Position numbers and translations under genes: made by a program. The notes beneath the pieces were generated by a model. It was not told where the DNA came from. It searched no databases and was given only the letters and a program-made list of their open reading frames with translations. From NCBI GenBank assembly GCA_964348825.1, contig CAYGDX010000001.1, positions 90,909 to 154,908 of the forward strand: DNA of 64,000 nucleotides, written 5' to 3'. The stretch is from an uncultured Gammaproteobacteria bacterium (GTDB lineage: Bacteria; Patescibacteriota; Patescibacteriia; Veblenbacterales; UBA10138). Shown here in pieces: positions 3,569-43,635 of the stretch (position 1 is the first letter of the stretch; every line of letters begins with the position of its first letter).

Positions 3569-3809
3569 TTGTGTAAGAAAATAATAATTTCTTCGTTAAA
3601 TAAATTAGCAGTAGATTTTAAAATCCGAATATCTAATACTGAAATCCGAAAAAGATGGAGTTTTGTATTTTGGGCTTAGAATTTTGGATTTATTTAGGAT
3701 TTAGAAATTAGAAATTAGGATTTTTTTGGATTCCCGCCTCCGCGGGAATGACAATTACTAAAACTATTAGCTATTTGCCATTTACTATTGGCTAAATTAT
3801 AATATCCTC

Positions 3810-4076
3810 ATGCCTCTTGAATTAAGTGAATCAACCCAAGTACGTATGATGCTGGATGAAAACCAGCGTTTACTTGAAGAAATAAAGAAAAATACCGAAC
3901 GCACGCGGAAATATATTCTGTGGAGTCAGATTTTTTTGGTAGTTAGAATGCTTATAATAATTTTGCCATTGGTTGCCGGATTTATATTCCTCCGCCCATT
4001 TTTTAAAGAAGCGGGTAGTGCGTATGAAGATATAATCGGCAGTGGCGCGCTGGAAGTGCTGAAGAGTTTAAAGTAA
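3810..4076 (+). CDS. Hypothetical small membrane protein
   Basis: 88-aa ORF with one hydrophobic helix (IFLVVRMLIIILPLVAGFIFL). No homolog recognised. Confidence 0.3.
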   Translation: MPLELSESTQVRMMLDENQRLLEEIKKNTERTRKYILWSQIFLVVRMLIIILPLVAGFIFLRPFFKEAGSAYEDIIGSGALEVLKSLK

Positions 4077-4187
4077 GGGTGTAGCGTGTAGGGGGTAGGG
4101 TGTAGTATGCTTGCCCCGTGATCGTCATCAGACGATTTTACGGGGTCATTGCGAGGAGCGAGTAAGGCGAGCGACAAAGCAATCTCT
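4074..4187. repeat. Composite MITE-like repeat: G-rich gggtgtag segment + ccccgt..acgggg hairpin + gtcattgcgag..agcaatc (family A)
   Basis: Same modules recur at 23397-23448, 26011-26100, 26221-26262, 26535-26622, 38466-38545, 52855-52900, 53806-53980. Confidence 0.6.
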
Positions 4188-4356
4188 CAAAAGTTTCAAT
4201 GACCAAGTTTAAAGTTCAAATAAATATTCAAAAGTTTCTAAAATTTTAAAATGTTGGAACTTTATTGGAACTTGGAAATTTGAACTTGGGATTTAAACAA
4301 TTTAGACATTTTTAGAAATTAGAGCTTAGAAATTAGTCATTTTTAATCTTTATTTT

Positions 4357-5646: not shown

Positions 5647-5840
5647 ATCCTAAAAAATTCCTCCCCTCAATAGGGGAGGTTAGGTGGGGTAATAAATAAA
5701 GCAGCCTGCAAAGGCTGTTTTTAAATTTCTAATCTCTAATAACTAATTTCTAAAAATGACTAAAATTTTAAAAATTAATTTATTGAAAATTGATTTAAAA
5801 TTGTAAATTTAAAATTAAACACTAAATACTACACCCTAAC

Positions 5841-6449
5841 CTACTTCCTAACCACTTTCGCCACTACAATTTCACTGGCCGTTATATCTTGCCCAGCAAC
5901 TTCCGCATTAGTTGTAATAGTTACAGTTTGTCCTACTTGCAAAGCACTAGCAGTAATTTTTTTAGTTAAAGTTGTAATTTTAGGTGCACCACCGGCGCTT
6001 GGAATAACCACAGTAGTGGTGCGTTCAGTAATTTTAGTTTGGGGAGTATAGTTAATAGTAAAATTTCCGGCTCGCAAAGTAGTTGGTGCGCCATTTTTAC
6101 TCGCACTCTGCATTTGCAAAACAAAAGATGATTTAGTTGCGCTCGTAATCGTTCCGCTTAAAGTGTAAGTAATTGGTGGGGTGATTGCCCCGTTATCATT
6201 TATTGGCGCTATCGGTTCAGTGTCAACTGACTTCGAACTATCAACTTCTAACTTTAAACTACCATCTATTAACTCTTGGCTATCGACTAATGACTCATCA
6301 TTGCTATTTGCTATTAGCGATTTGCTAGTAGCCACTTGCCACGCCTTTCCATAACCCAAATTATAACTAACAGCCGAACTTGCGCCCGCCAAAATTAAAG
6401 CCAGTATTATTACCAACCCAATTCCACGGGAGTTAAGAATAATGTCCAT
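5841..6449 (-). CDS. Hypothetical secreted/membrane-anchored protein, Thr/Ser-rich
   Basis: N-terminal signal/anchor (IGLVIILALILAGASSAVS), low-complexity T/S-rich body. The only minus-strand gene in the first 11 kb. Confidence 0.4.
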   Translation of the reverse strand: MDIILNSRGIGLVIILALILAGASSAVSYNLGYGKAWQVATSKSLIANSNDESLVDSQELIDGSLKLEVDSSKSVDTEPIAPINDNGAITPPITYTLSGTITSATKSSFVLQMQSASKNGAPTTLRAGNFTINYTPQTKITERTTTVVIPSAGGAPKITTLTKKITASALQVGQTVTITTNAEVAGQDITASEIVVAKVVRK

Positions 6450-11005: not shown

Positions 11006-12649
11006 CTATTTTAAAAGTAACATTTTTTTTGTTATTGATACTTCTATCGTGTGCAACCGATAGAAGTAAATACCAGAATTAAGGTGTGAAGCATCAAAAG
11101 TCACTTCATGGCTACCTGACTCCATGACTTTATTGACTAACTCCGCTATTTCTTCACCAAGTATATTATAAACTTTCAAAGTTACCAACTTCGAACTGTT
11201 TACTTCGAACTTAATACTCGTTGAAGGATTAAACGGATTCGGATAATTCTGCAACAATTTCATTTGACTTGGGATTTCGGATTTCGGATTTCGAATTTCC
11301 ATTTCTGGTGGAGGCGGTGGCATTTCACTGCTATGCACAATTCGAATTTGTGTACCCGGAATTATATCATAGAGCGACATTGTAAATTCACCAGTTTGTT
11401 CCACTTTTACCCAATACCCTTGTCCGGGATACAGCGTATCAACATTCTTATACCCATTCTCATAAGCGTAGAACGATGAGGTTACAATTCCCGGTGGATT
11501 ACTGGTGATGTAATTAGTCGGCATTTTTCCAGTGAGTGATCCAATCATATTCCACCCTTCTTGCACTTGAATAGTGGTGGAAGTTGAACTGTCGCCGGTA
11601 ATGCTTACATATTGTGTATTCGCAAATTTTAACCAGTACCCCTTGCCAACTTCTAACGTCTCCATAGAGTGGTAGCCATCATTATAACCAAATGCTTGTG
11701 ATATCGCTGTTGGAAATACATTTGCCACACTCGCATCGGTTACGTTTTTAGGTAGCGATACAATATTCCATCGCTTGTTAAAGCGATAGGCTACTTCTGG
11801 CAGAATATACACGCCAAAATTAAGTGTTGGATACAAAGTATCGCCGATTGTGACATATGAAGTATCAACTTCAGGATATGTTTGTGTCCAGCCATTTATT
11901 TTTTCGGCATATATTTTGTAAGTACCGCGCGGTATATTTTGGAAAATATAATTTCCAGATGAATCAGTAGTGGTTGAATCAAGTGTTGTATCTTTAATAT
12001 ATACCTTCCAATCCGCTGTTGGTTGCTCATCGTTATCATGGGTAGTATTTTGATTTTCATCTATAAATATATTTCCAGCCAAACTGCCAATTTCCCCGCC
12101 TAAGTAAAAGGTGTCTGGGTTGACTACTTTTCCATAGTTAGAAAAATCATCCAAATAAAAGGTATAATTTCCCACTAAAGTAGTAAATAAATAATTGATA
12201 ACCAAACTTACTGAATCAAATTGGTGAAGTATATCTGATCCTTCGTAGCTTTTTTTGATATAAGTCCAGTTTGTACCGGCATTTACTGGTGTTAAATTTC
12301 CAACTTGTATAGTAGTATCATTGTGATGTATTAATATGTACAAAACAGGATATATATTATTAGCGACGGTTCCCTTTTCCCAATAATTAAACCAAGTATC
12401 AAATTCGACTAATTGCGTAAATTTACGTCCGTAAATCACACTATCAGTTTGACTATCAGCTGTGGTGGTTATGCAAACTGAATTAGTGGAATTATGTCCA
12501 GTATTGGTAATGTAAATACTATCTGAGGCCATTGTAGAATATTGGCGCACCCATTTATCTTGCTCGGCTTTTGTTTCCGTTGGTAAAGCCAATGGCATGA
12601 TTGCGATTATGAAAATCGCCATTGTTAATATGTTTGTGAAGTTTTTCAT
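11006..12649 (-). CDS. Secreted protein with carboxypeptidase-regulatory-like (prealbumin-fold) domain and T9SS-type C-terminal sorting domain
   Basis: Signal peptide MKNFTNILTMAIFIIAIMPLALPTETKA. SGNYIFQNIPRGTYKIY beta-sandwich motif. C-terminus LQNYPNPFNPSTSIKFEV...LKVYNILGEEIAELVN...GSHEVTFDASHLNSGIYFYRL...TKKMLLLK matches the Por secretion C-terminal domain consensus. Contains an in-frame aaatccgaaatccgaaat repeat coding EIRNPKSEI. Confidence 0.7.
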   Translation of the reverse strand: MKNFTNILTMAIFIIAIMPLALPTETKAEQDKWVRQYSTMASDSIYITNTGHNSTNSVCITTTADSQTDSVIYGRKFTQLVEFDTWFNYWEKGTVANNIYPVLYILIHHNDTTIQVGNLTPVNAGTNWTYIKKSYEGSDILHQFDSVSLVINYLFTTLVGNYTFYLDDFSNYGKVVNPDTFYLGGEIGSLAGNIFIDENQNTTHDNDEQPTADWKVYIKDTTLDSTTTDSSGNYIFQNIPRGTYKIYAEKINGWTQTYPEVDTSYVTIGDTLYPTLNFGVYILPEVAYRFNKRWNIVSLPKNVTDASVANVFPTAISQAFGYNDGYHSMETLEVGKGYWLKFANTQYVSITGDSSTSTTIQVQEGWNMIGSLTGKMPTNYITSNPPGIVTSSFYAYENGYKNVDTLYPGQGYWVKVEQTGEFTMSLYDIIPGTQIRIVHSSEMPPPPPEMEIRNPKSEIPSQMKLLQNYPNPFNPSTSIKFEVNSSKLVTLKVYNILGEEIAELVNKVMESGSHEVTFDASHLNSGIYFYRLHTIEVSITKKMLLLK

Positions 12650-13220: not shown

Positions 13221-13258
13221 ATTATCTAATTATGTCCGGCCGGACATAATTAGATAAT
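13221..13258. repeat. Perfect 38-bp palindrome attatctaattatgtccgg|ccggacataattagataat, left copy
   Basis: Identical palindrome recurs at 13820-13855, so the pair brackets ORF 13274-13816. Confidence 0.8.
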
Positions 13259-13273
13259 AGAGATTAGTTTAAT

Positions 13274-13816
13274 ATGTTAAAACGAACTAAAACAATTAGT
13301 CAGATCATTTTGACCGCGCTTTATGGTAGCGGTTTGGCAATGGTTGAATTTCATAATTTTATCAATGATTTTAGGCGTTGGGGTTATCATTATGAAAGCA
13401 ATCGCGAATGGCAAAATTATTTAAAATACATAAAGAACAAAAAGAAGTCGTATCGCTTATTGTATAATCTAAAAAGAAGCAAATATATTAAAATCAATAA
13501 GACAGGCGATAAGATTATAGTAAGCTTAACTAATAAGGGTAAAATGGCAGCGCTTAAAAATAGTTTATTACAAACTAAAAAGATGTCAGATAAATATACC
13601 GTAGTGATTTTTGATATTCCCGAAACAGCGCGCTTAGCCAGGGTATTATTTAGAAAACTCTTAAAAGAAGCTAGCTTTAAAAAATTACAACAAAGTGTGT
13701 GGATATCGAATTGTGACGCTCGTGATATCATGATTAAATTTATTAAAGAACAAAAAATAGATAAGTGGGTGAATGTATTTTATGCTACCAATTTGTTCAA
13801 GAAGTCGAATTTATAA
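13274..13816 (+). CDS. Hypothetical protein: N-terminal winged-helix-like region + C-terminal Cas2/VapD-like domain
   Basis: C-terminal KYTVVIFDIPETARLARVLFRKLLKEASFKKLQQSVWIS resembles the Cas2 N-terminal strand-helix-strand (xxVVxYDIxx, RRxKVxKxL, RVQxSVF). N-terminal half is basic and wHTH-like. No cas1 or CRISPR array nearby. Confidence 0.35.
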   Translation: MLKRTKTISQIILTALYGSGLAMVEFHNFINDFRRWGYHYESNREWQNYLKYIKNKKKSYRLLYNLKRSKYIKINKTGDKIIVSLTNKGKMAALKNSLLQTKKMSDKYTVVIFDIPETARLARVLFRKLLKEASFKKLQQSVWISNCDARDIMIKFIKEQKIDKWVNVFYATNLFKKSNL

Positions 13817-13819: not shown

Positions 13820-13855
13820 TTATCTAATTATGTCCGGCCGGACATAATTAGATAA
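13820..13855. repeat. Perfect 36-bp palindrome ttatctaattatgtccgg|ccggacataattagataa, right copy
   Basis: Starts 4 bp after the stop codon of the 13274-13816 ORF; identical to the copy at 13221-13258. Confidence 0.8.
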
Positions 13856-15759: not shown

Positions 15760-15838
15760 CACTAGAACATTTAAACATTAGAACATTATTAATAAAAAAC
15801 TTTTTGTTCTTATGATCTAGTGATCTAATGTTCTAGTG
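15760..15838. repeat. Palindromic cactagaac / gttctaatgtt element (family D)
   Basis: cactagaacatttaaacattagaac...gttcttatgatctagtgatctaatgttctagtg. Related copies at 17944-18030, 21878-21912, 22270-22307, 27845-27925, 34888-34975, 43570-43632, 58048-58100, in both orientations. Confidence 0.65.
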
Positions 15839-16925: not shown

Positions 16926-17011
16926 GTTTAAATTCTAATATCGAATATCGAAATTCGAAAAAATTTAAAATTAATTTAGGATTTCGGATTTAGTGCTTCG
17001 GATTTTAAACT

Positions 17012-17935: not shown

Positions 17936-18055
17936 GAGTTTTTCACTAGAACATTAGATCACTAGATCATAAGAACAAAAAGTTTTTTATTAATAATGTT
18001 CTAATGTTTAAATGTTCTAGTGTTCTAATGAATAAGATTTAGAATTTTAATTACT

Positions 18056-18655
18056 ATGCCTCCAGTTAAATCAAAAAATCAAGTAAGCAAATGGGAGCGT
18101 GCTTTGGAAAAATATTTTCTGTGGCTGGCGCTTGGTTTGTCGATATTAATTATTATTTTAGGGGTGTGGTTTTTGTGGCGTCCGGTTTATAATGAGTGGC
18201 AAGGCGGAGTAGATTTAAATAAAGAAAGAAATGAATTACAAGTGGCGCGAGCACGCTTCGAGGTTTTAAAAAAATTATTTACTGATTGGGAAAATCTAAA
18301 GGTGAAACCTGCGGGGCGTGATTTGCCTTTGATTTTACCAAGTGAGGCCGAGGTGCCTAATTTATTGGTTCAGCTTGAAGCCATAGCGCGCGATACTGGT
18401 TTTAAATTACAAGGTATTGCGGTGAGTGAAGCGAGTGGTAAGGGAACATCTCGTAAAGGTGAATCAGGTGCTACTACAATTTCCGGTGCGCGACCAATTA
18501 AAATCACACTTAGTTTAGATGGCGCTACGTACCCCAAAGTTAAAACATTGCTTAAGGCCTTGGATCAGGCTTGGCGTTTAATTCAGGTAGATAGTTTTAC
18601 GGTGGGGCGCGATAGTGCTTTGAGTTTAGAATTAACTGCTTATTATTTCCCTTAA
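18056..18655 (+). CDS. pilO: PilO-like type IV pilus assembly protein
   Basis: Single N-terminal TM (FLWLALGLSILIIILGVWFLW), coiled-coil plus C-terminal alpha/beta region. Synteny pilM-N-O. Confidence 0.5.
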   Translation: MPPVKSKNQVSKWERALEKYFLWLALGLSILIIILGVWFLWRPVYNEWQGGVDLNKERNELQVARARFEVLKKLFTDWENLKVKPAGRDLPLILPSEAEVPNLLVQLEAIARDTGFKLQGIAVSEASGKGTSRKGESGATTISGARPIKITLSLDGATYPKVKTLLKALDQAWRLIQVDSFTVGRDSALSLELTAYYFP

Positions 18656-18658
18656 ATT

Positions 18659-19000
18659 ATGTTAGTAGCTAAAAGTTTGCCAATTGGAAAAACCTTAACT
18701 ATGATTAGTGTGGTAGTTGTAGCGTTAGGTACAATTTTGTATTTGGTGTATACTAATTTTATAGATACTTCATCGGCACCGGTAAGTGATACACCAGTAA
18801 CTACTGGTGTATCAACACTTGAAATTAGCGCGGCTGAGGCCAAGTTTAAATTACCTAGTGGACAAGTTTTGGATAAAAATTTCTTTACCCTGCCGGCAGT
18901 TGAGGAATTATTTAATTTTGGTGATTTGCCAGTAACTGCTACACCTGTGAAGCGAGATGATCCTTTCGCCCCCTTGCCAAGTACAAATAAACGGCGGTAA
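18659..19000 (+). CDS. Hypothetical membrane protein (possible PilP analogue)
   Basis: 113 aa with N-terminal TM. Position after pilO. No sequence motif recognised. Confidence 0.3.
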   Translation: MLVAKSLPIGKTLTMISVVVVALGTILYLVYTNFIDTSSAPVSDTPVTTGVSTLEISAAEAKFKLPSGQVLDKNFFTLPAVEELFNFGDLPVTATPVKRDDPFAPLPSTNKRR

Positions 19001-19047
19001 AATAGAAATAGTTTAAAAATAACTTTTTAATTAAATAAATAAAATTT

Positions 19048-19599
19048 ATGAGTATGCGTTTTTCTAAAATAAATGGCTTTACCCTCGTAGAGCTTTTAGT
19101 CGTAATTGCCATTATTGGTATTTTGTCATCACTTTCAGTGGTGTCGTTAAACTCTGCTCGTGGCCGCGCGCGCGATGCTCAACGTTATAATGATTTAAGG
19201 CAATTATTTACCGCGATGACGCTTTATTATGATACTCAAGTATCTACTCCGCAATATCCCAGTATGAGCGGTTCTGAAGAGGATAAATGGACTAGTGATA
19301 ATGATACTGCGAGTTGGTGGAATGGTATAGCAGGGCCTAATAGATTTTTCCCTACAGTTTTGAAAGATCCTGGGATTGGCAATACATCTGCTTATTCGTA
19401 TGCTGTGCAAGCCGAAACAAGTGCTGGTAAGGGGGATCTGCGACAACATTATTGTGTTTATACAAAATTAGAAGGCGCAGATAATTATTTAATTGTAACC
19501 GAGAGTGGTTTAAAATCTAAAGAGGGAACCCCCGAATTTACAGATAATTCAACAGTTTGCGATTGTACACCAGGTTTATGTGCAGAAGCTGGTTCGTAA
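19048..19599 (+). CDS. Type IV pilin (class III signal peptide, N-methylation motif)
   Basis: NGFTLVELLVVIAIIGIL...ARDAQRYNDLRQ prepilin leader and conserved N-terminal helix. C-terminal Cys pair. Confidence 0.8.
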   Translation: MSMRFSKINGFTLVELLVVIAIIGILSSLSVVSLNSARGRARDAQRYNDLRQLFTAMTLYYDTQVSTPQYPSMSGSEEDKWTSDNDTASWWNGIAGPNRFFPTVLKDPGIGNTSAYSYAVQAETSAGKGDLRQHYCVYTKLEGADNYLIVTESGLKSKEGTPEFTDNSTVCDCTPGLCAEAGS

Positions 19600-19641
19600 T
19601 TTTTTAGAATTTTGATATTAGGATTTAGAATTTAATTCAGT

Positions 19642-20052
19642 ATGCCCAAAAAGCAACCCAGTGGCATAATTCTTCTTATAGTAATAGTTGGGGTGGCGGT
19701 TTTATTGGCCGCCACTTTTGTTTTAATTACTGTCGGACGTAAACAGAATTTGACCAAACGTGAGGCAATTCGTTTAGAAAACTTACGCTTGATTTCTCAA
19801 GCGCAGGAATTTTATTTTGACCGCTTCCAAAAATATGGCTCGTTTGAGGAGTTGATTAAGGCTCGTTTATTAGATGAAATTCCGCGTGACAACAAGAATG
19901 AAAAAGGTTATAATTTATATCGCAGTACTAAAGAGGATGAGTGGTGTGTGTGGTTAGAAATGGAGCAGCAAAATCCGCCGTATTTAAGCCTTGGCTCGCA
20001 CGGTCAAAAAAAATTAATAATACCGCCGATTGATTTAGAAACATGTAAGTAA
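19642..20052 (+). CDS. Pilin-like protein lacking canonical prepilin cleavage motif
   Basis: N-terminal TM plus KREAIRLENLRLISQAQEFYF, resembling the pilin N-terminal helix region. No G-F-T-L-[IV]-E motif. Confidence 0.3.
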   Translation: MPKKQPSGIILLIVIVGVAVLLAATFVLITVGRKQNLTKREAIRLENLRLISQAQEFYFDRFQKYGSFEELIKARLLDEIPRDNKNEKGYNLYRSTKEDEWCVWLEMEQQNPPYLSLGSHGQKKLIIPPIDLETCK

Positions 20053-20119
20053 AATCCGAATATCGAAATCAGAAATACAAAAACTTTGAACTATTGACTA
20101 ATAACTTTGAACTTAGTGT

Positions 20120-21874
20120 ATGGCTGACGAAGCAATCATGGCAAAATCAGGTAACACCGGTGATATTGGTGATTTTTTAGTTACCCAAAATATTTTAACC
20201 GTGGCGCGTTTAGCTGAATATAGAAAAATTGCACAAGCTGAACAGCGAGGCATTGAGGAAGTTTTAATGGAGCGTGCGGCGCTTACCCCTGAAGCACTAC
20301 TTAAAGCTAAAAGTGCTTTTTATGGATTACCAGCAGTTGATTTAACCCAACAAGCCGTGACTGAAATGGTGCTACGCTTAGTGCCACTTGAACTCGCCCA
20401 ATACTATCAATTAGTACCTTTCCGGCGTGACAACAACGACGTGTGGATTGCTTTGGTACATCCAGAAAATTATAAATCAATGGAAGCAGTTGATGTTTTA
20501 GGACGTCAGCACGGCTGGAAACCAAAATATGCGATTACCACTTCCACTTCGTTACTTAAAGTGCTTCGTCAATATAGTTCGCTTACTTCCGAAGTCGGTG
20601 AGGCCTTAAAAATGGCGGAAGATGACGATCAATCAGCCCTAAGGCAAGATGAAAATGTACAAGAATTTGAAGAAGTTTTAAAAGCCGCACCGGTGGCGAA
20701 AATGGTGGCCTCAATTCTCCGGCACGCGGTAGAAGGTGGTGCTTCGGATATTCATATTGAACCAGGCGATGCCGATAGTCGCGTGCGTTTTCGAGTTGAC
20801 GGCATTCTTCGTACCTCACTTACCTTACCGAAATATATTCACTCGGCGGTTATATCGCGTATTAAAGTACTAGCTAATTTAAAAATCGATGAAACCCGAC
20901 AACCGCAAGATGGTCGTATTCGTTTACGAGTGGTGGATAAAGTAATTGATTTTCGTATTTCCACTATGCCAGTAATTGGTAATGAAAAAGTGGTGATGCG
21001 TATTTTGGATCCAACGACCGGCGTGCGTACTTTTGAGGGTTTGGGTTTTACTGGTCAAAAATTACGCATCCTAAAAGAAGCAATTCAAAAACCGCATGGC
21101 ATGTTCTTAGTTACTGGGCCAACGGGTAGTGGTAAAACAACCACGCTTTACGCCGTGCTCAATATTTTAAATCGCGAAGAAGTAAATATTATTACACTAG
21201 AAGATCCAGTGGAATATTTTATGGGTGGTGTGAACCAATCGCAAGTGAACCCGGAAGTGGGTTATACTTTTGCCAATGGTCTTAGATCAATTCTTCGGCA
21301 AGACCCCGATATTATTATGGTTGGTGAAATTCGTGACTCGGAAACTGCGGAGCTTGCGATTCATGCTTCGCTCACTGGTCACATACTACTTTCAACTCTC
21401 CACACCAATGATGCGCCGGCCGCAATTTTGCGTTTAACCGATATGCACATTGAACCGTTTTTAATTGCCTCCACTGTGAATGTAATAATTGGTCAACGTT
21501 TGGTCAGAAAATTATGTGAAAGTTGCCGCAAACCCAGCACTCTGCCGCCAGAAATGCTTAAGAAAATTCAAGAATCGTTTGCTGGAATGGGCGCGGGAGC
21601 GAAAGAAGAAGTTCCAGCTGAACCGTGGACAACTTATGAAGCGGGTTCCTGCTCACACTGTGAAAATTCTGGTTACAGGGGTCGGGTGGCGATTACAGAA
21701 ATACTAGCCAATACGCCGGAATTGCAAAAAATAATTGCCGATGGCGCCAAGCCCCACGAACTAAAAGCTGAATTTGTACGCCAAGGTAGTACTAGTTTGA
21801 TGCAAGATGGATATTTGAAAGTGCTTACAGGTATGACATCGCTCGAGGAAGTGCTCACTGCGGCGCAGGACTAA
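20120..21874 (+). CDS. pilB: Type IV pilus assembly (extension) ATPase PilB / GspE family
   Basis: Walker A GPTGSGKTT, Walker B DPDIIMVGEIRD, His box GHILLSTLHTNDA, tetracysteine CESC...CSHC. 584 aa with N-terminal GspE-N domain. Confidence 0.9.
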   Translation: MADEAIMAKSGNTGDIGDFLVTQNILTVARLAEYRKIAQAEQRGIEEVLMERAALTPEALLKAKSAFYGLPAVDLTQQAVTEMVLRLVPLELAQYYQLVPFRRDNNDVWIALVHPENYKSMEAVDVLGRQHGWKPKYAITTSTSLLKVLRQYSSLTSEVGEALKMAEDDDQSALRQDENVQEFEEVLKAAPVAKMVASILRHAVEGGASDIHIEPGDADSRVRFRVDGILRTSLTLPKYIHSAVISRIKVLANLKIDETRQPQDGRIRLRVVDKVIDFRISTMPVIGNEKVVMRILDPTTGVRTFEGLGFTGQKLRILKEAIQKPHGMFLVTGPTGSGKTTTLYAVLNILNREEVNIITLEDPVEYFMGGVNQSQVNPEVGYTFANGLRSILRQDPDIIMVGEIRDSETAELAIHASLTGHILLSTLHTNDAPAAILRLTDMHIEPFLIASTVNVIIGQRLVRKLCESCRKPSTLPPEMLKKIQESFAGMGAGAKEEVPAEPWTTYEAGSCSHCENSGYRGRVAITEILANTPELQKIIADGAKPHELKAEFVRQGSTSLMQDGYLKVLTGMTSLEEVLTAAQD

Positions 21875-21912
21875 ATAATCATAATAACATTAGATCACTA
21901 GAACATTAGAAC

Positions 21913-22272
21913 ATGAGTCAAGAATTCAGAGAGCAGTTAAAAAAGAAAATGGACGAATATGTAAAATTAGTTTATCGCGTGACTAAAAATTATCCCCGCG
22001 ACGAGTTATATGGAGTAACTTCACAATTAAGAAGATCAACCCTATCCGTGATATTAAATTATTTAGAGGGTTATGCCAGGCGCCGAATTCCAACTTGCTA
22101 TCATTTTTGGGAAATATCTTATGGTTCGTTACAAGAAAGTAGATATTTATTAGATTTATCATTAAATGAAAATTATTTATTAATTGAAAATCACAAAACA
22201 TTAAGTGTTTTAGCTGATGAAATTAGTGCTATGCTCTGGCAATCCTTGAAGAATTTAGAAAAATACAAATAG
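21913..22272 (+). CDS. Four-helix-bundle protein (23S rRNA intervening-sequence protein family)
   Basis: SQLRRSTLSVILNYLEGYARRR matches the 'four helix bundle protein' family signature. Bracketed on both sides by family D repeats. Confidence 0.7.
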   Translation: MSQEFREQLKKKMDEYVKLVYRVTKNYPRDELYGVTSQLRRSTLSVILNYLEGYARRRIPTCYHFWEISYGSLQESRYLLDLSLNENYLLIENHKTLSVLADEISAMLWQSLKNLEKYK

Positions 22273-22307
22273 TTAATGTTTAAGTGTTCTAATGTTTTAA
22301 TGTTCAA

Positions 22308-23390
22308 GTGTTTATGTCCACCACCGACTCCTTAACCATCAATCGCTTGCTCACTGAAGCCGCAGAAAGGCAGGTATCTGACCTTCATTTTACTGTTGGT
22401 GCAAATCCAGCCGCGAGGCGTGACGGCAAGCTTGAAACATTAAACGCCGAGCCACCCGTCACCGAAGAATTTATGAAAGGGTTGGTCGAATTTTTTATTC
22501 CGGAGAATAAGAGAGCTCGTTTTGCCAGCGCGCAAACTTTAACCTTAACTTATAATTTTGGCACACGCGCTCGTTTTCGGGTGCACGGAAGCTACCAAAA
22601 GGGTTATCCAGCTTTAGATTTACATTATGTACCATGGCAAGCGCCCGACGTTACAACTATGGGTTTGCCTAAAATTTTACTTAATTCTATAAAAGAAAAA
22701 GAGGGATTGATTCTTTTGAGTGGTTTGCAGGGGTCAGGCCGTAGTGCTACGCTCGCGGCGCTACTTGATAATATTAATCATACACAAGCTAAACATATTG
22801 TAACGATTGAAGATCCAGTGGAGTATTTACTGACCAACGATAAATCATTTATCAAACAAAAAGATGTCGGTGATGATATTCCAAGTGTGGAAGATGCTTT
22901 GGGTGGCCTTAAAGATGAAGATGTAGATGTGCTAGCGATTGATGTACCGCTTAATATGGCGGCTTGGCGCGAAATTTTTACACGGGCGCGGAGCGGCACT
23001 TTAGTTTTTGTGGCGATGGAAGCCGATACTTCAGTGCGGGCGCTAGAATCACTTATTTTAAGTTGGCCGGGTGCTGAAGCTGATAGTTTAAAACAATTAT
23101 TAAGCGAAACACTTCTCATTGCTACTTCACAGCGCTTAGTGCCACGCGTTGGCGGTGGTAAGGTAATGGTAGTAGAATGTTTACTTGGTAATACGCCGGT
23201 TAAATCATTAATTCGCGATGGTAAGATTTTACAACTCCAAAATGTACTGGAATTATCGCGTGAAGATGGTATGGTGTCACTCGAAAAAAGATTGTCTGAT
23301 TTAGTAAAAACTGGAGAAATTACACAAGAAGATGCAGTAGCTCACGCTGTGAACAAAGAGGTGATTGGGTCGATGTTGCGGGTGAAGTAA
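22308..23390 (+). CDS. pilT: PilT-like retraction-ATPase homolog with degenerate catalytic motifs
   Basis: PilT-length GspE-family core. Walker A is GLQGSGRSAT (Lys to Arg, Pro to Gln). Walker B region DEDVDVLAIDVP lacks the catalytic Glu. His-box GTLVFVAMEA lacks the His. Confidence 0.7.
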   Translation: MFMSTTDSLTINRLLTEAAERQVSDLHFTVGANPAARRDGKLETLNAEPPVTEEFMKGLVEFFIPENKRARFASAQTLTLTYNFGTRARFRVHGSYQKGYPALDLHYVPWQAPDVTTMGLPKILLNSIKEKEGLILLSGLQGSGRSATLAALLDNINHTQAKHIVTIEDPVEYLLTNDKSFIKQKDVGDDIPSVEDALGGLKDEDVDVLAIDVPLNMAAWREIFTRARSGTLVFVAMEADTSVRALESLILSWPGAEADSLKQLLSETLLIATSQRLVPRVGGGKVMVVECLLGNTPVKSLIRDGKILQLQNVLELSREDGMVSLEKRLSDLVKTGEITQEDAVAHAVNKEVIGSMLRVK

Positions 23391-23641
23391 TTTTTAGGGT
23401 GTAGCGTGTAGGGTGTAGTTCGTCATTGCGAGCTTCAGCGAAGCAATCCCTAGTAAATCCCCAAATCCCAATCCCTAAGATTGAATTTTAAATTATAAAT
23501 TTTAAGTCAATTTTTAATTAAAACATTTAGTTTTTGATTAAAAACCCGTAAAGGTCTCGTGGAGACCCACGCGTTTCTTTACGAGATTTAAAATTAAAAA
23601 TTTAGTTATTTTTAGAAATTAGATATTAGAAATTTTCGTTC

Positions 23642-24850
23642 ATGTCCTTATTCTCCTACGAAGCCAAAGATCTCGAAGGCCGTGCCTTAAAAGGCATGGT
23701 TGATGCGGCATCGCATGCCGCTGCCGTGGAAATTTTAACCGACAAAGGCCTTACCCCAATTACAGTCGAAGAAAAAAAGGTGAGTCGTTTGCAATTTTTA
23801 TTTGGCAATCAAATTTCGCGCATTAAGATCAAAGATATTGTAGTATTGTCGCGTCAGCTTTCGGTGATGGCTTCTGCCACTGTACCAATTGTGCAAGCAC
23901 TTAGAATTTTAGAAAAACAAACCGCCAATCCTAAACTTAAAGTAATAATTTCCGAAATTGCCGATGAAGTAGAAGGTGGTGCCAAATTTTCCTCTACGCT
24001 GGCCAAATATCCCGATGTGTTTTCCGACTTTTATATCAATATGGTGGCGAGCGGTGAAACCTCAGGTAAGCTCGATGAAGTGCTGAATTATTTAGCAGAT
24101 GAACAAGAAAAAAATTACGATATGATTAGTAAAATTCGCGGGGCGATGATTTATCCGGCTTTTATTTTGGGTGGGTTACTTTTAGTTGGCGCGGTGATGA
24201 TGATTTTCGTGGTGCCGAAACTCACTTCAATTTTAGTGGAATCAGGCGTGGCCCTGCCACTTTCTACACGAATCCTAATTGGCTTTAGTAATTTTTTAAG
24301 AAATTTTTGGTGGTTATTTTTAATAATGCTGGTGGGCGGGGGAATTGGTTTTCGTTATGGTGTAAAAACTCCAAAAGGAAGGCACTTGTGGCATTTAATT
24401 CAGCTTAAAATTCCGGTGGTTGGCACAATTTATCAAAATATTTATTTAGTGCGCTTTACTCGTTCAATGTACACGCTAATTGTTGGTGGTGTGCCTTTAA
24501 CTCGCAGTTTAGCCATCGTTTCCGATGTGGTGGGTAATGCTGTATTTAAACAAATTATTGATGAAACAATTAAAGAGGTAGAAGATGGCAATTCCATTGC
24601 CACTGTGTTTTCACAAACCAAAGTAATTCCTTCAATGGTATCACAAATGATGATTGTGGGTGAAAAAACTGGGCGACTCGAGGAAGTATTTAAACGTTTA
24701 TCCGACTTTTATACTCGCGAAGCTAATAATTTAGTGGCCAATTTAGTAACCTTGCTTGAGCCAATGGTGATGCTTGTAATGGGTGTATCAGTGGGGTTTA
24801 TGGTTTCGGCGATACTGTTGCCTATGTATAGGTTGTCCTCCGGCGCTTAG
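23642..24850 (+). CDS. pilC: Type IV pilus inner-membrane platform protein PilC (GspF family)
   Basis: 402 aa, two GspF-type repeats with three TM segments. Typical PilC topology and motifs. Confidence 0.85.
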   Translation: MSLFSYEAKDLEGRALKGMVDAASHAAAVEILTDKGLTPITVEEKKVSRLQFLFGNQISRIKIKDIVVLSRQLSVMASATVPIVQALRILEKQTANPKLKVIISEIADEVEGGAKFSSTLAKYPDVFSDFYINMVASGETSGKLDEVLNYLADEQEKNYDMISKIRGAMIYPAFILGGLLLVGAVMMIFVVPKLTSILVESGVALPLSTRILIGFSNFLRNFWWLFLIMLVGGGIGFRYGVKTPKGRHLWHLIQLKIPVVGTIYQNIYLVRFTRSMYTLIVGGVPLTRSLAIVSDVVGNAVFKQIIDETIKEVEDGNSIATVFSQTKVIPSMVSQMMIVGEKTGRLEEVFKRLSDFYTREANNLVANLVTLLEPMVMLVMGVSVGFMVSAILLPMYRLSSGA

Positions 24851-24894
24851 AGTAAAATCCTAAATCCTAAACCCTAAATTCTAAACAATATCAA

Positions 24895-25263
24895 ATGACA
24901 GAAAATCAAAATTCAAAACAGTATAATTTAGAAGATAGGACACTTTGTTTTGCTAAAGAAATTGGTATTTATGTTAATAAATTGCCGTTTACAGTGCCTA
25001 ATAAGGAATACGGTAAGCAGTTAGTGCGTTCCGCGAGTTCGGTAGGCGCAAATTATCTTGAAGCTAATGAAGCATTAAGCAAAAAAGATTTTTTAATGCG
25101 GATTAAAATTTCTCGTAAAGAAGCTAAAGAAACTCGCTTTTGGCTACAATTAACCGAGCCATTACCAGAAATGAATAGCGCTAGAGATAAATTTATTCAA
25201 GAAATTACTGAATTAATGAAGATTTTTGGAGCAATTATAGAAAAATCTAAACCTAATGTTTAA
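24895..25263 (+). CDS. Four-helix-bundle protein (second copy)
   Basis: VRSASSVGANYLEANEALSKKDFLMRIKISRKEAKETRFWLQL matches the same family as 21913-22272. Confidence 0.7.
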   Translation: MTENQNSKQYNLEDRTLCFAKEIGIYVNKLPFTVPNKEYGKQLVRSASSVGANYLEANEALSKKDFLMRIKISRKEAKETRFWLQLTEPLPEMNSARDKFIQEITELMKIFGAIIEKSKPNV

Positions 25264-25382
25264 TGTTTTATAATTTTGGATTTGTTTAGTATTTAGATAT
25301 TAGAATTTAGGATTTAAATAAAACGCCATTGTGTACTTATTTGCCTAGTGTTATAATTATATCGTCAAATAGAATATTATAA

Positions 25383-25979: not shown

Positions 25980-26274
25980 TGGTATGATTAGTGATAGATT
26001 GGGTGTTAATGAGCAGTTGTCATTGCGAGTGAGTCATCAGACGAGCGACGATTTGTCCGCCGTAGCTTTAGCGAAGGTGGAAGCAATCTATCAAAATCAC
26101 TAATAACTAATTCCTAATTTCTAAAAATTCCCAAGACCCAAATCCCAAAATTTAGACATTAGTCATTAGATATTTTTAGAAATTAGATATTAGACATTAG
26201 AAATTTATTTTTTAGAGATTGCCACGCCCTCGCTCTTTTCGCTCGGGCTCGCAATGACATAACACTCTTACTCT

Positions 26275-27102
26275 ATGCTCTTACTAATCTTCATCTTCGG
26301 CCTCTGTCTCGGCAGTTTTTTAAACGTCCTCATTCTCCGCCTAAAAGACGACAAGTCAATTCTCGGTCGTTCGCAGTGTCCAAAGTGTTTAAGGCAACTT
26401 AAATGGTTTGAAAATATTCCACTACTTTCTTTTATTTTTTTACGCGCGAAATGTGCTTCGTGTAATCAACCAATCTCTTGGCAATATCCTTTAGTAGAAT
26501 TTACGAGCGGGGTTTTGTGGGTTACATCCTACTTTGTCATTGCGAGCCAAGCGAAGCAATCCCTCGTTTTAGCAACAGAGATTGCCACGTCGTCCGCTTC
26601 GAGCGTCCTCCTCGCAATGACACAAAACGATTGGCTGGCTATGTTTACTTTTGGTGTATTCGTAACCATTTTACTCATTCTTTTTGTTTTTGACTTTCGT
26701 TGGTACATTTTACCTGATCAAATTACCATTCCTGCCATCGTTATCACCATAATTTTACAATTACTACTCGGCGTTTCCATTATTAATTTACTTATCGCAG
26801 GATTATCTGGTGCGGCTTGGTTTGGCGCGCAATATTTTGTATCAAAAGGTAAATGGGTGGGTGATGGTGATATTCGCCTTGGCGCTTTAATTGGTTTAAT
26901 GCTTGGCACTTGGCAGTTACTTTTAACCACTTTTTTTATCGCTTATATTGGTGGCGCCATTATTGCCGTTATTTTATTGTTACTAGGCAAAGTAAAACGT
27001 GGGGCGAAACTGCCAATGGGAGCGTTTTTGACAACAGCAACGATAATTGGGCTGATGTATGGTAAAATAATATGGGAATGGTATATAGGATTAATATGGT
27101 GA
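26275..27102 (+). CDS. pilD: Prepilin peptidase PilD (A24 family) carrying an in-frame repeat insertion
   Basis: N-terminal CxxC-x21-CxxC zinc domain (CPKC...CASC), A24 core with GDGDIRLG Asp motif. Residues VIASQAKQSLVLATEIATSSASSVLLAMTQN are encoded by a family A repeat. Confidence 0.8.
   Translation: MLLLIFIFGLCLGSFLNVLILRLKDDKSILGRSQCPKCLRQLKWFENIPLLSFIFLRAKCASCNQPISWQYPLVEFTSGVLWVTSYFVIASQAKQSLVLATEIATSSASSVLLAMTQNDWLAMFTFGVFVTILLILFVFDFRWYILPDQITIPAIVITIILQLLLGVSIINLLIAGLSGAAWFGAQYFVSKGKWVGDGDIRLGALIGLMLGTWQLLLTTFFIAYIGGAIIAVILLLLGKVKRGAKLPMGAFLTTATIIGLMYGKIIWEWYIGLIW
26535..26622. repeat. Family A repeat (tgtcattgcgag..agcaatc..ctcgcaatgaca) inserted in-frame within pilD
   Basis: Same inverted-repeat module as intergenic copies (e.g. 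4146-4185, 53824-53929). Reading frame of pilD is uninterrupted. Confidence 0.75.
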
Positions 27103-27242
27103 TTGAATCACTAATCACTAATTCCTAATATCTAAAAATCACCAAGATCCAAACCTCAATCCCAAAATTTAGTCATTAGACATTAGTCATTTTTAGAAAT
27201 TAGAGATTAGTTATTAGACATTATATAAGTTAGTACATAATC

Positions 27243-27842: not shown

Positions 27843-27962
27843 TGATTTTTATTAGAACATTAAATCATTAGAACATAAAAACAAAATTGATAAAATGTTT
27901 CAGTGTTCTAGTGTTTTAATGAATATACTTCGGATTTAAAAACAACTAGTAGGTATTTTATT

Positions 27963-30429: not shown

Positions 30430-30430
30430 A

Positions 30431-32671
<2,241 letters not shown>

Positions 32672-32682: not shown

Positions 32683-32841
32683 TGTGTCATTCCCGTGAAT
32701 CCGCCATCCGTCAACTGGTCGGAGGCGGAGGGAATCCAGAGACAAGTTGTTTCGAACCTAGAAGCTAGAATATAGAATCTAGATAAGTGCAGTCCAAATT
32801 ATAACTTCTAACTTTTATATTCTAAATTCTGGACACTTTGG
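32683..32841. repeat. Composite repeat, second copy flanking ligA
   Basis: gtgtcattcccgtgaatccgccatccgtcaactggtcggaggcggagggaatcc ... ctagaagctagaatatagaatctagataagtgcag ... ggacactttgg; matches 30431-30659. Confidence 0.65.
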
Positions 32842-33165: not shown

Positions 33166-33392
33166 TTAAGTAAGAGTAAGAGCTTAGAGCTGTGCCCCGT
33201 ACTGTTTCCACTGAAGTGGAATCTAGTACGTGGGTAAGAGTGGCTTGCCCCGCGTAGTTTTAACGAAGTGGGGTCATTCCCGCGGAGGCGGGAATCCAGG
33301 AACAAAAAATCCTAAATAAATCTAAAATCTTAAATTCAAAATTTTTAAACATTTAGTTATTTGGATTTGATTTGACATTTAGATTTTGAAAT

Positions 33393-34877: not shown

Positions 34878-34997
34878 ATCTTATTCATTGGAAAACTAGA
34901 ACATTTAAACATTAGAACATTTTAATAAAAAACTTTTTGTTCTTATGTTCTAGTGATTTAATGTTCTAGTGAAAATTATTACTCTTACTAAATAACC

Positions 34998-35570: not shown

Positions 35571-35793
35571 ATTTAAAATCCTAAATCCGAATATCTAAAT
35601 CCTAAATAAATCCCAATGATTAAAAGCCAAAATTGAATTTTAAATTATAGATTTTAAATCAATTTTTAATGACTTAATTTTAAAACATTTAAATATTTAT
35701 TAATTTAATCATTGAATAAAAATTTAAAATTAAAAATTTTAGTTATTTTTTAGAAATTAGATATTAGAGATTAGAAATTTTGAAAATTGCTTT

Positions 35794-36534: not shown

Positions 36535-36590
36535 GAGTTTTTTAAAAATCCGAAATTCGAATATCTAAATCCTAAATAAATTCCAAAAGT

Positions 36591-36760
36591 CGTGCGGCCT
36601 CGTCGTAGGGTTTGTACAGAGCGCAAGGCAAACGAGCGTCCGGTTCGGGCGTGCTGTGGTAGTTGTGCATAGCCCGAACCAGCTCGTTTGGCGAGCACTG
36701 TTCAAACCCGAAGACACAGGCCGCGATTCTTGGTTACTTCTATTAAAGAAGTAACAAAAT
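36591..36760 (+). repeat. Structured about-170-nt element (family C), forward orientation; possible small ncRNA or cruciform-forming MITE
   Basis: Long stem caaacgagcgtccggttcgggc...gcccgaaccagctcgtttg plus terminal hairpin ggttacttct-attaa-agaagtaacc. Related copies at 37667-37853 (reverse), 39899-40170 (with about 100-nt hairpin insertion), 52622-52850 (diverged). Confidence 0.5.
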
Positions 36761-37632: not shown

Positions 37633-37666
37633 TATAGAATTAAAATTAGTTTATTTGTTTTTTTGT

Positions 37667-37853
37667 CACTTCTCTAGGAGAAGTAACCAAGAGTCGCAAC
37701 CTTTGTCTCCAAGTCAGGCAGTACTCGTCAAACTCGCTGGTCAGGCCTATGCACATCGACCACAAACACGGCCTGACCGGACGCTCGTTTAACTTCCCTG
37801 CCTACCGGCAGGCAGGCGCTCTGCACTGACTTTACGACGAGGTTGCACAACGG
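37667..37853 (-). repeat. Family C structured element, inverted orientation, with compensatory stem changes
   Basis: Reverse-complement alignment to 36591-36760. Stem ggttcgggc/gcccgaacc is replaced by ggtcaggcc/ggcctgacc (covariation). Extra hairpin cctgcctaccggcaggcagg. Confidence 0.5.
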
Positions 37854-37876
37854 TTAATTTTTCATTTTGATTTTTT

Positions 37877-38476
37877 ATGAATAAGAAAAATTTAATTATT
37901 GCTCTAGTTGTGATAGTAGTAGTTTTGGTTGGTTTGTGGCAATGGAGTCGGCAAGATGCACCTTCATACCCGGAAGTTAATTCGCCGCGGCCATTTTTAG
38001 GGTTAGCAGATTCTAAAGTGGTGGTAGAAGAATTTTCTGATTTCCAATGTCCAGCTTGTAAAGCGGCTCAACCAATAGTTAAGGATTTGATTGAAACTTT
38101 GGGTGGTCGTATAAAATTTAGTTATCGCCATTTCCCTTTACTTACTATTCACACGCAGGCCTTCCGCGCCGCGCTCGCTTCCGAATGTGCTAATGATCAA
38201 GGTAAATTTTGGGAATACCACGATATTTTATTTGAGAAACAGCCAGCATTTTCACCCGAGGATTTAAAGGCCTATGCTGGTCAGCTTGGACTTAAAACGG
38301 ATGATTTTGCGGCTTGTCTTGATTCCCGCGCTAAAAATAAAGTGGTGCGTGAGGAAATGAAAGAAGGTGACAAAAGAAATGTAAACGGCACCCCAACTTT
38401 TTTCTTGAATGGTGAGAAAGTAGAGGATTGGAGTAAACTTAAGGAATTGATTCAGGCGAAGCTAGTCGGCGGTTAG
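37877..38476 (+). CDS. DsbA-family thiol:disulfide oxidoreductase (paralog 3)
   Basis: N-terminal TM, active site FQCPAC. Confidence 0.7.
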   Translation: MNKKNLIIALVVIVVVLVGLWQWSRQDAPSYPEVNSPRPFLGLADSKVVVEEFSDFQCPACKAAQPIVKDLIETLGGRIKFSYRHFPLLTIHTQAFRAALASECANDQGKFWEYHDILFEKQPAFSPEDLKAYAGQLGLKTDDFAACLDSRAKNKVVREEMKEGDKRNVNGTPTFFLNGEKVEDWSKLKELIQAKLVGG

Positions 38477-38680
38477 GTGGTAGCATGTAGCTTGTAGTGG
38501 TTGTCATTGCGAGAAGCGAGTTAAACGAGCGACAAAGCAATCACTTAAAATCACTAATAACTAATTCCTAATATCTAATAATGACTAATGACTAAAATAA
38601 AAAAATTAGACATTCGTCCGCCAGCTGGCGGATTGGGATTTTTTAGAAATTAGATATTAGAGATTAGTCATTCTAAAATA

Positions 38681-39496: not shown

Positions 39497-39520
39497 CTTA
39501 GGGATTTTTAGTTTTTCATT

Positions 39521-39565
39521 TGGCGGGCCCGGCCGGATTCGAACCGGTGATCTTCTCCGTGACCC
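39521..39565 (-). repeat. Duplicate of the 3' half of tRNA-Asp (anticodon-stem 3' strand through CCA)
   Basis: Reverse complement tcacGGAGAAGATCACCGGTTCGAATCCGGCCGGGCCCGCCA is identical to the 3' 42 nt of the intact tRNA at 39619-39696. Preceded by hairpin ccccgtagagacacgcttgtcttctacgggg instead of a tRNA 5' half. Confidence 0.6.
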
Positions 39566-39618
39566 CGTAGAAGACAAGCGTGTCTCTACGGGGCACAGCA
39601 GTGAGGTATTTGATTATT

Positions 39619-39696
39619 TGGCGGGCCCGGCCGGATTCGAACCGGTGATCTTCTCCGTGACAGGGAGACGTGTTAACCGGGCTACACCACGGGCCC
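39619..39696 (-). tRNA. tRNA-Asp (anticodon GUC), CCA encoded
   Basis: Reverse complement folds as GGGCCCG-TG-GTGT-AGCCCGGTTA-ACAC-G-TCTCC-CTGTCAC-GGAGA-AGATC-ACCGG-TTCGAAT-CCGGC-CGGGCCC-G-CCA. Perfect 7-bp acceptor stem, U33, A37. One A.C mismatch closing the T-stem. Confidence 0.7.
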
Positions 39697-39739
39697 AGCA
39701 AATAATCAAATTAATTTTGTTTAGGGCTACTGCGCCCCG

Positions 39740-43572: not shown

Positions 43573-43635
43573 CATTAGATCGCTAAATCATTAAAACAAA
43601 AAATTGATTTAATGTTCTAATGTTTAAGTGTTCTA

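Follow-up and report, generated by a model that had tools for sequence, protein, structure and literature searches.

Hairpin-forming repeat modules and intervening-sequence protein cassettes in the intergenic spacers of a Patescibacteria genome

Proteins of the intervening-sequence (IVS) family have been known from insertions in rRNA genes since the 1990s, and tandem heptamers of cyanobacteria have been used for fingerprinting since about 1990. To our knowledge, neither the cyanobacterial heptamer repeats nor the IVS protein family has an accepted function. The rRNA IVSs are excised by RNase III, a step that is only assumed for the cassettes considered here. We analyzed a stretch of 64,000 nt (contig CAYGDX010000001.1, positions 90,909 to 154,908 of the forward strand, assembly GCA_964348825.1), called the window in the following, whose intergenic spacers carry recurring hairpin-forming modules and in which two genes for an IVS protein (IVP) lie between inverted arrays of 7- or 8-nt units. 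These spacers are probably a mosaic to which several unrelated classes of DNA contribute, all of them hairpin-forming, dispensable and rapidly exchanged, and the system is best described as a variant that combines IVS cassettes, heptamer arrays and hairpins similar to repetitive extragenic palindromes (REPs) or to the dRS3 repeats of Neisseria.

The cassettes share with 23S rRNA IVSs a PF05635/TIGR02436 protein encoded in the loop, inverted repeats able to form a long stem and a position inside a host transcription unit. Unlike the rRNA insertions, they lie between protein-coding genes of operons (pil genes and those of the type IV secretion system (T4SS) here, cas genes in cyanobacteria), and tandem 7/8-nt arrays form their arms. 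Repeated heptamers close to the ends of genes have been described as TAACTGA repeats (PMC4679880) and as GGGNATC repeats with a preference for four units (PMC4692102). As in these and in the short tandemly repeated repetitive (STRR) sequences, 7-nt units of the window stand in intergenic DNA between co-directional ORFs, near starts or stops, in arrays that prefer about four units and bring stop codons into all frames. However, the window arrays form inverted hairpin pairs, comprise many unit types including 8-nt ones and are linked to TIGR02436 genes, and their units (AAATCCT, TTAGAAA, GGGTGTA, CAYTAGAA and others) include neither TAACTGA nor GGGNATC. S23, four-helix or intervening-sequence proteins are not mentioned in the TAACTGA paper (PMC4679880), and a full-text literature search returned no paper linking heptamer repeats to the TIGR02436 gene family.

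The GC-rich hairpins of the window recall REPs, bacterial interspersed mosaic elements (BIMEs) and the REP doublets (REPINs) that accompany REP-associated tyrosine transposases (RAYTs) (PMC2817692, PMC3337134). Families A, B and P are imperfect GC-rich palindromes of 25-45 nt with a conserved 5' head and many copies, they form inverted doublets whose spacer keeps hairpin structure alone, and they are assembled into mosaic clusters in spacers; a gene between two inverted repeats is also the arrangement of the rayt gene. Unlike in REPs, all 17 A/B copies have GTCATT as their head and not GT(A/G)G (PMC2817692), no RAYT gene was seen in the window or the fetched loci, and the family A core occurs across many phyla. 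At their first description RAYT-REP pairs were confined to gamma- and betaproteobacteria (PMC2817692), and REPINs were later reported in Nostoc punctiforme (PMC3337134). With dRS3 and the Neisseria intergenic mosaic elements (NIMEs; PMC1797815) the window shares three exact family B fits to the consensus, GC-rich hairpins alternating with AT-richer variable segments, and strain-variable arrays. Here the host belongs to an unrelated phylum, there are few copies per spacer and no IS110-type phage integrase was seen. The likeness may be homology or convergence.

Recurring modules in the intergenic spacers

PilB homologues carry a Patescibacteria annotation and VirB4 homologues lead to relatives of Candidatus Veblenbacteria; the host is a very small bacterium from groundwater, and its genome is apparently a streamlined one of the candidate phyla radiation (CPR) of less than 1 Mb. 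A first-pass annotation made from the sequence alone had proposed that its spacers are built from a small set of modules, and this is borne out: at least one module is present in 42 of the 51 spacers of 28 nt or more. When every spacer was printed and inspected, all seven proposed types (i, G-rich heptamers; ii, family P; iii and iv, families A and B; v, family D; vi, AT-rich arrays; vii, family C) were found where they had been placed or nearby, nested, combined and in both orientations. Modules cover 3936 of 9725 intergenic nt (~40%) but only 461 of 54253 coding nt (0.85%). The notion that they fill intergenic spacers holds for the spacers but is incomplete, as modules also occur within genes: a family A doublet in PilD (26536-26621), a GGATTTC heptamer array in a minus-strand gene (11263-11305), a GGGTGTA-type array on the plus strand of ileS (62058-62104) and arrays similar to the latter in argS (59542-59577) and again in ileS (60622-60652). 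Dispensable hairpin repeats can thus make up about 40% of the intergenic DNA in a streamlined CPR genome.

The modules are strongly enriched. The family A/B head GTCATTSCSR has 17 matches in the window versus 0.62 expected, the 20-bp dRS3 consensus ATTCCC-N8-GGGAAT has 3 versus 0, and tandem arrays of period 7 or 8 number 52, compared with 1.5 +/- 1.0 after dinucleotide shuffling; the window gave none with a period of 5, 6, 9 or 10. Nine of ten representative modules folded better than at least 199 of 200 shuffles (z -3.3 to -6.9), and weaker values were obtained for family E (z -2.4), an element described below, and for the array hairpin at 16926-17011 (z -1.9). The stretch at 4074-4187 that had drawn attention to the repeats resolves into a GGGTGTA-type array beginning directly after a stop codon (4076-4106, plus strand), a family P hairpin (GCCCCGT..ACGGGGC, 4113-4146; CCCCGT..ACGGGG in module ii) and a plus-strand family A hairpin (GTCATTGCGAG..GCAATC, 4145-4184). 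The order of modules is recurrent: G-rich heptamers follow a stop codon, sometimes with a P hairpin after them; next come an A or B hairpin and C/A-rich heptamers, and beyond an AT-rich centre, heptamers of the TTAG type lead up to the next start codon. Beside a minus-strand gene (5711-5853) the order is reversed.

The commonest class consists of about four tandem 7- or 8-nt units followed by complementary units in inverted order; the left arm begins immediately behind a stop codon, and the right arm reaches to just ahead of the next start codon. Most units contain TAA or TAG, and since neither 7 nor 8 is divisible by 3, three such units bring a stop into every frame. Literature searches with module sequences or peptide strings returned primer coincidences only, and nothing relevant was found on REP or RAYT in Patescibacteria.

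Collapsed or chimeric assembly might produce such a picture: independent short-read contigs end in repeat arrays, among them both ends of the Logan contig compared here, and many IVP homologues are located on very short contigs. Yet this Logan contig is 100% identical to the window over 18018-25301 (7284 nt with nine spacers), and the arrangement of IVP and pil genes recurs in two more datasets. An artefact is therefore practically out of the question. The motifs were also found outside the window, in relatives and at other loci. The repeats do have practical consequences, as they break short-read assemblies of CPR genomes and produce spurious ORFs, such as those for "...LAMT" and "RHCEERSDEAIQ" peptides.

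IVP genes between inverted arrays and their turnover

Two small genes of the pil operon, at 21913-22272 and 24895-25263, encode PF05635/TIGR02436 "23S rRNA intervening-sequence proteins" of the four-helix-bundle type. They score 81 and 71 bits against a cut-off of 24. Solved homologues are 2GSC and 2RLD, and the protein has five chains per crystal entry. The IVP1 cassette (21880-22312, plus strand) is located between pilB and pilT and consists of an octamer left arm (21880-21913), the gene and a right arm (22274-22312); the arms are CAYTAGAA octamers that are 82-83% complementary. The IVP2 cassette (24854-25316, plus strand) follows pilC and has an AAATCCT arm upstream and a TTAGGAT-type arm downstream of the gene (41 nt, 80% complementary). 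Both lie between protein-coding genes, none within a 23S rRNA gene. Their units are those of the octamer palindromes (v) and AT-rich arrays (vi), and gene-less array hairpins in the spacers use the same arm types as the cassettes.

The association of IVP genes with arrays extends beyond this lineage. A metagenome scan with an IVP alignment yielded 80 loci, 69 of them non-redundant and with sufficient flanks, and 44 control ORFs were taken from the same loci. The upstream and downstream flanks, 60 nt each, showed inverted complementarity (Smith-Waterman score of at least 14) at 55 of the 69 IVP loci versus 3 of the 44 controls, and both flanks were strongly periodic at 29/69 versus 0/44. Beside 71 IVP genes, Tandem Repeats Finder detected 129 arrays with a period of 7 or 8; a copy number of 4 was the most frequent, and there were ~70 unit types. 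The upstream neighbor was co-directional in 60 of 60 cases, and its stop codon preceded the IVP start by a median of 39.5 nt. Annotated plasmids with an IVP homologue (22 records) were all cyanobacterial; tandem 7-nt arrays adjoin all 12 of the plasmid genes inspected on at least one side, about nine of them with recognisably complementary arms. In pNPUN01 of N. punctiforme, the arms GGGTGTG/GGGTGTA and CCCACAC/CCTACAC have the unit of module (i) of the window, as at 4076-4106. This reproducible link in two distant phyla provides a testable hypothesis for both the heptamer repeats and the IVS protein family, namely that the protein binds its own flanking arrays.

Several plasmid IVP genes and their arrays stand inside cas operons, between cas6 and cas4 or between cmr2 and cmr3; the cases are in Anabaena sp. 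90 pANA02, a Picosynechococcus PCC 7003 plasmid and a Pseudanabaena plasmid. Such a location may explain why a figure legend on CRISPR-linked genes lists "23S rRNA IVP" (PMC10910872), and the repeats may likewise account for the scoring of IVP genes as CRISPR-associated.

The spacers of a close relative (GCA_964360795.1, loci L002 and L128; same pil gene order, 99% protein identity of PilB, 72-93% DNA identity of genes) allowed a comparison between sister genomes, and most orthologous spacers hold different modules there. Among the few conserved ones are those with two family D hairpins (15760-15838, 17944-18022) and an arm of the IVP2 cassette, which is kept in L002. Spacers of 3 nt and 47 nt in the window measure 413 nt and 308 nt in the relative, and the 251-nt composite between pilT and pilC (23391-23641) has a homologous 252-nt composite in a different L002 spacer. 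Cassettes relocate as well. The relative contains three IVP genes in consecutive T4SS spacers (L128), each with its own arm type (CCCAAAT, octamer, AATTTCT). Its IVP1-type cassette (88% protein identity, same arms) is located at traC/virB4 and its pilB/pilT spacer has none; in the window strain IVP1 is at pilB/pilT and traC/virB4 holds a gene-less heptamer hairpin. One arm position apparently covaries between the two IVP1-type cassettes (CATTAGAAC..GTTCTAATG versus CACTAGAAC..GTTCTAGTG), with an uncertain pairing register. In a third cassette the strains differ only by a 1-nt deletion, which disrupts the ORF of the window strain, and the truncated ORF is also present in the gene calls of a second, independent assembly. 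In a distant relative (L005, 876-kb contig, PilB 73%) the same operon has spacers of 5-15 nt, and no IVP genes were found in its T4SS operon. Arrays per 10 kb amount to 7.2 in the window, 11.5 in L002, 13.2 in L128, 0.9 in L005 and 0.31 in loci from other phyla. The sister lineage free of repeats offers a natural pair for studying how such DNA invades compact operons.

These data also bear on the possibility that the modules are regulatory or structural elements of the host rather than selfish DNA. Arrays are placed precisely after stops and before starts between co-directional genes, compensatory changes keep hairpin structure, and a similar role has been proposed for TAACTGA (PMC4679880) and GGGNATC repeats (PMC4692102). 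Nevertheless, the distant relative runs the same operons with minimal spacers and almost no arrays, the module type at one junction differs between close relatives, and copies occur inside coding sequences. In the spacers read, no T run was noticed after the hairpins, although no terminator scan was made, and folding gives the sense strand no advantage (see below). A host function is thus an unlikely explanation for the repeats.

We favor the mosaic of unrelated classes, in which the first class would be an IVS-type cassette riding inside host operons, with the full-length element carrying the TIGR02436 gene in its loop. Always co-directional with the upstream gene and about 40 nt past its stop, the cassettes would be co-transcribed with the host operon. 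A promoter of their own seems unlikely because the ~40-nt gap is mostly array arm, a judgement made without a promoter scan. By analogy with rRNA IVSs, the transcript probably has its array arms paired and processed. For the movement of the cassettes we favor copying or exchange through the arrays.

A broader idea would unite TIGR02436 proteins and inverted arrays of about four 7-8-nt units in one cross-phylum class of selfish operon-embedded cassette, with the protein as the cognate array-binding factor. The IVP would then bind the tandem units much as the trp RNA-binding attenuation protein (TRAP) binds its repeats and in this way govern how the cassette is processed, translated or copied, and gene-less derivatives would have proliferated in this Patescibacteria lineage. 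If true, one idea would cover 23S rRNA IVSs, STRR-like heptamers of cyanobacteria and the repeat-saturated spacers described here. We put it forward tentatively, as a possibility that is rather doubtful at present.

Several observations weigh against the mosaic explanation that we favor. Folding of array hairpins gives the sense strand no advantage over the antisense strand (13 of 24, p = 0.98), and a role at the RNA level is therefore not favored over one at the DNA level. No internal remnant of an IVP gene was noticed in the gene-less hairpins, and inspection by eye of the loops of those of family D revealed no similarity to it; IVP genes may instead land in pre-existing hairpins. Among plasmid IVP genes, that of Pseudanabaena has direct rather than inverted arrays, and those of Calothrix, Anabaena sp. 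90 and PCC 7120 have little or no recognisable downstream arm. The only decayed IVP differs by a single base within a short run of A's. The comparison with the relative spans ~50 kb of its sequence and ~22 kb of further sequence from the window strain. No enzyme able to move any of the classes was found in the window ORFs scanned or in related loci. Finally, we know of no catalytic activity of IVP, a small four-helix bundle.

GC-rich hairpins and family C

The window contains 11 copies of family A (a CTGAG variant included) and 7 of family B (GTCATTCCCG..GGGAATC). Both often occur as inverted doublets (26019/26258, 26536/26621, 53824/53928, 62940/63050). In the first of these, a plus- and a minus-strand family A copy surround a heptamer-armed hairpin (26019-26258); the doublet at 53824-53928 is REPIN-like and made of family A (-40.3 kcal/mol, z -3.5), and that at 62940-63050 is made of family B. 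Three copies of the short form of family B are exact fits to the dRS3 consensus: 33273-33296, part of a plus-strand cluster with two CCCCG hairpins (33190-33296); 43848-43871 on the plus strand; and 3729-3752 on the minus strand, next to an AAATCCG/TTAGGAT heptamer hairpin (3617-3752 in all). Family B stands singly or in doublets beside other modules, and no long dRS3 arrays were seen in the window. A family A inverted doublet (26536-26621, plus strand) stands in frame within the gene for the prepilin peptidase PilD, which has ~20 extra residues compared with the distant L005 orthologue. Hairpin repeats in frame within protein genes are known from the Rickettsia palindromic elements, and the PilD insertion in a conserved protein gene is similar in this respect.

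The family A core is not specific to this lineage but is spread over many bacterial phyla. In a scan of one genome per species, the matches listed include Alpha-, Gamma- and Deltaproteobacteria, Chloroflexi, Bacteroidetes, Cyanobacteria, Oscillospiraceae, Planctomycetes, Nitrospirota, Zixibacteria and CPR, and 30 of 120 listed loci from many phyla carry inverted doublets, whose median gap is 24 nt. None of these 120 loci yielded an IVP homologue. Conversely, 207 kb of metagenome loci with IVP genes lack the core, from which we conclude that family A and the arrays are independent systems. The d(GCGAAGC) mini-hairpin was considered as the core of family A and rejected, as GCGAAGC is only weakly enriched in the window (10 versus 5).

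Family E, an element of ~100 nt with termini of ~10 nt, provides two cleanly resolved insertions; other junctions are too AT-rich to judge. One copy (CCCGCCTGCC..GGCGGGCAGG, 39978-40079) interrupts the apical loop of the third family C copy, where gtgca|E|tagccc compares with gtgcatagccc in copy 1, and the other, in the opposite orientation, is located within an array arm of L002. Neither has a target duplication.

These findings define what remains of the proposal in the first-pass annotation that the repeats are an active or recently active system of MITEs (miniature inverted-repeat transposable elements). Modularity, both orientations and fast turnover are confirmed, but the repeats form at least three layers rather than one MITE system: the commonest class consists of 7/8-nt tandem arrays without unique terminal inverted repeats, and the two resolved insertions of family E lack target-site duplications. 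The remark of the annotation that the window encodes no cognate transposase agrees with the ORFs scanned, but it overlooks the two IVP genes with array arms of the spacer type, IVP being no known transposase.

In a classical MITE or REPIN scheme, all families would be mobilised in trans by transposases encoded elsewhere (IS200/IS605/RAYT, IS1595 or IS110 type). The elements are polymorphic between close relatives, nested and in both orientations, families A and B form REPIN-like inverted doublets, and the insertions of family E without target duplication are as expected for the IS200/IS605 type. However, no transposase domain, whether of IS200/IS605, IS1595 or another type, was found in the window ORFs scanned with Pfam or in the precomputed Pfam calls of ~70 kb of related loci (L002, L005, L128, L227, L230). 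The commonest class has tandem-array arms of ~70 unit types instead of a fixed terminal repeat, and GT(A/G)G, the head by which REPs are defined (PMC2817692), is missing. In the 120 listed loci, no real protein family turns up repeatedly within 800 nt of the family A motif; translated repeats alone form clusters there. Mobilisation of all families in this way appears improbable to us.

Another scheme would see the modules as non-transposing landing pads that give homology or recombinase sites for replacement by relatives' DNA, as proposed for dRS3 and the NIMEs of Neisseria (PMC1797815). Type IV pili are encoded by the organism, the short form of family B fits the dRS3 consensus and whole spacers appear swapped rather than simply invaded. 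A T4SS region that includes two IVP cassettes is essentially identical between the strains (L227 11940-12330 versus L128 6356-6745). As the pil region reaches only 72-93% (values of 80-92% were also obtained), this suggests, from sequence identity, a recent exchange of the T4SS locus between the two strains. On the other hand, the precise insertions of family E in otherwise identical sequence do not fit, the first arrival of a module in a repeat-free spacer is left unexplained and no recombinase was seen in the scanned loci. We regard landing pads as a very improbable general explanation.

Within the mosaic that we prefer, the small GC-rich hairpins (families A, B, P, E and F) would constitute a second class, REP/dRS3-like, in or beside the loops of the first, forming doublets and inserting without target duplication, sometimes in frame into genes. 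For their movement we favor trans-mobilisation on single-stranded DNA or site-specific recombination.

Family C would be the third class, a long hairpin of ERIC (enterobacterial repetitive intergenic consensus) or Correia type, likened to these by its form: an imperfect intergenic palindrome of ~150 nt that occurs in both orientations and forms one long hairpin. Only four copies of this ~180-nt element were seen, all within the window. Copy 1 (36578-36760, plus strand) consists of a ~150-nt long hairpin and a terminal 23-nt hairpin (-89 kcal/mol, z -9.1), copy 2 (37650-37880, minus strand) is 78% identical to it and contains a 20-nt mini-hairpin insert, copy 3 (39886-40170, plus strand) is the one interrupted by family E and copy 4 (52630-52850, plus strand) is divergent. 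Between copies, nine of 62 predicted base pairs persist although both partners have changed. Family C was not found in the fetched loci of relatives outside the window, and comparison with Rfam gave no match.

Further spacers, neighboring genes and side observations

Family D hairpins are gene-less and octamer-armed (CAYTAGAA units). The copy at 15760-15838 (plus strand; -27.4 kcal/mol, z -6.9) is kept in the close relative, and that at 17944-18022 (minus strand) has an asymmetric loop inverted relative to it. A further copy is located at 34893-34971 (plus strand), and similar octamer hairpins are found at 27850-27925 and, directly past a stop codon, at 43573-43640. Heptamer-armed hairpins include one of the TTGGAAC type with a TTAGAAA arm behind it that lies just ahead of the following start codon (4200-4345), one filling the pilM/pilN spacer (16926-17011), where the close relative has a different hairpin type, one with ACTAATx/TTAGxxA units (27103-27225, z -5.7) and one with TGTCAAA/TTTGACA units (59877-60004). 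An AAATCCT arm, an AT-rich palindrome and a TTAGAAA arm jointly fill an entire spacer (35571-35793), and AAATCCT/TTAGGAT arrays with a nested hairpin occupy both spacers adjoining rpmI (56406-56839).

Composites join these arrays to other modules. On the plus strand, the 251-nt composite at 23391-23641 comprises G-heptamers, family A, CCCAAAT heptamers, an AT-rich palindrome, a small hairpin and a TTAGAAA arm, and that at 38477-38680 comprises GTAGCNT heptamers, family A, ACTAATx heptamers, a CCGCCAGCTGGCGG hairpin and a TTAGAAA arm. A third plus-strand composite (30430-30655) consists of G-heptamers (30435-30470), a P hairpin (30477-30505), a long family B (30504-30554) and a GAATCTA-armed hairpin (30568-30651). 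The long family B and the GAATCTA hairpin have a second copy on the other side of ligA (32686-32841, plus strand), and the gene is thus flanked by two direct 156-nt copies (30504-30659, 32686-32841) that are 89% identical. Family P is also found around the minus-strand tRNA-Asp gene (39619-39696), which has partial self-copies on both sides (39520-39779): a copy of its 3' half (39520-39562) runs directly into a P hairpin (39562-39594), and a copy of its 5' end (39724-39779) is split by a second one (39734-39762). The tRNA gene may have been a site of repeated integration or repair, or P hairpins may have inserted into tRNA copies.

The window has 38% GC and a positive GC skew across its full length, and nearly all genes are on the plus strand. 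They include a type IV pilus operon, ligA, gatC/gatA, three DsbA-like genes, tRNA-Asp, smpB with tmRNA, infC-rpmI-rplT, argS and ileS. Over the window, Rfam at gathering thresholds reported only the tmRNA and one tRNA, with no rRNA, and at E-value thresholds the module-rich stretches gave only sub-threshold matches to generic miRNA-hairpin models. A block of minus-strand ORFs without Pfam match (49900-53720; GC 0.41-0.43, reversed AT skew) stands out from the almost entirely plus-strand remainder and may be an acquired island; a minus-strand family A hairpin (52859-52895) lies within a block of minus-strand genes. Two adjacent genes for very large proteins without Pfam match (40473-43244 and 43960-48936; 923 and 1658 aa) are followed by one for an M23 peptidase. 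A stand-alone gene for an 85-aa GIY-YIG nuclease-domain protein (55560-55815), ~150 nt past the tmRNA and behind a family P hairpin, is the sole nuclease-like gene of the window or near the repeats.

An element of ~135 nt (cccagaaatacaacttcgc ... gcgaagttgatatactgggt) that is absent from the window occurs in the close relative (L002 2616-2754, 7801-7933 and 9862-9995; L128 7991-8125) and possibly in the distant one (L005 9077-9216). Only a few bases separate its end from the start codons that follow, which belong to unrelated genes, and it may be a mobile leader or promoter module. In the window, a 36-nt perfect palindrome (ttatctaattatgtccggccggacataattagataa) is present on both sides (13222-13257 and 13820-13855) of a gene (13274-13816) whose 180-aa product combines a winged-helix domain with a PaaX_M/Cas2-like one. 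The window strain has a second gene of this winged-helix/PaaX_M type elsewhere (L227 422-985), and at the gene of the relative (L002 1860-2402) the palindrome differs, its two halves having changed together.

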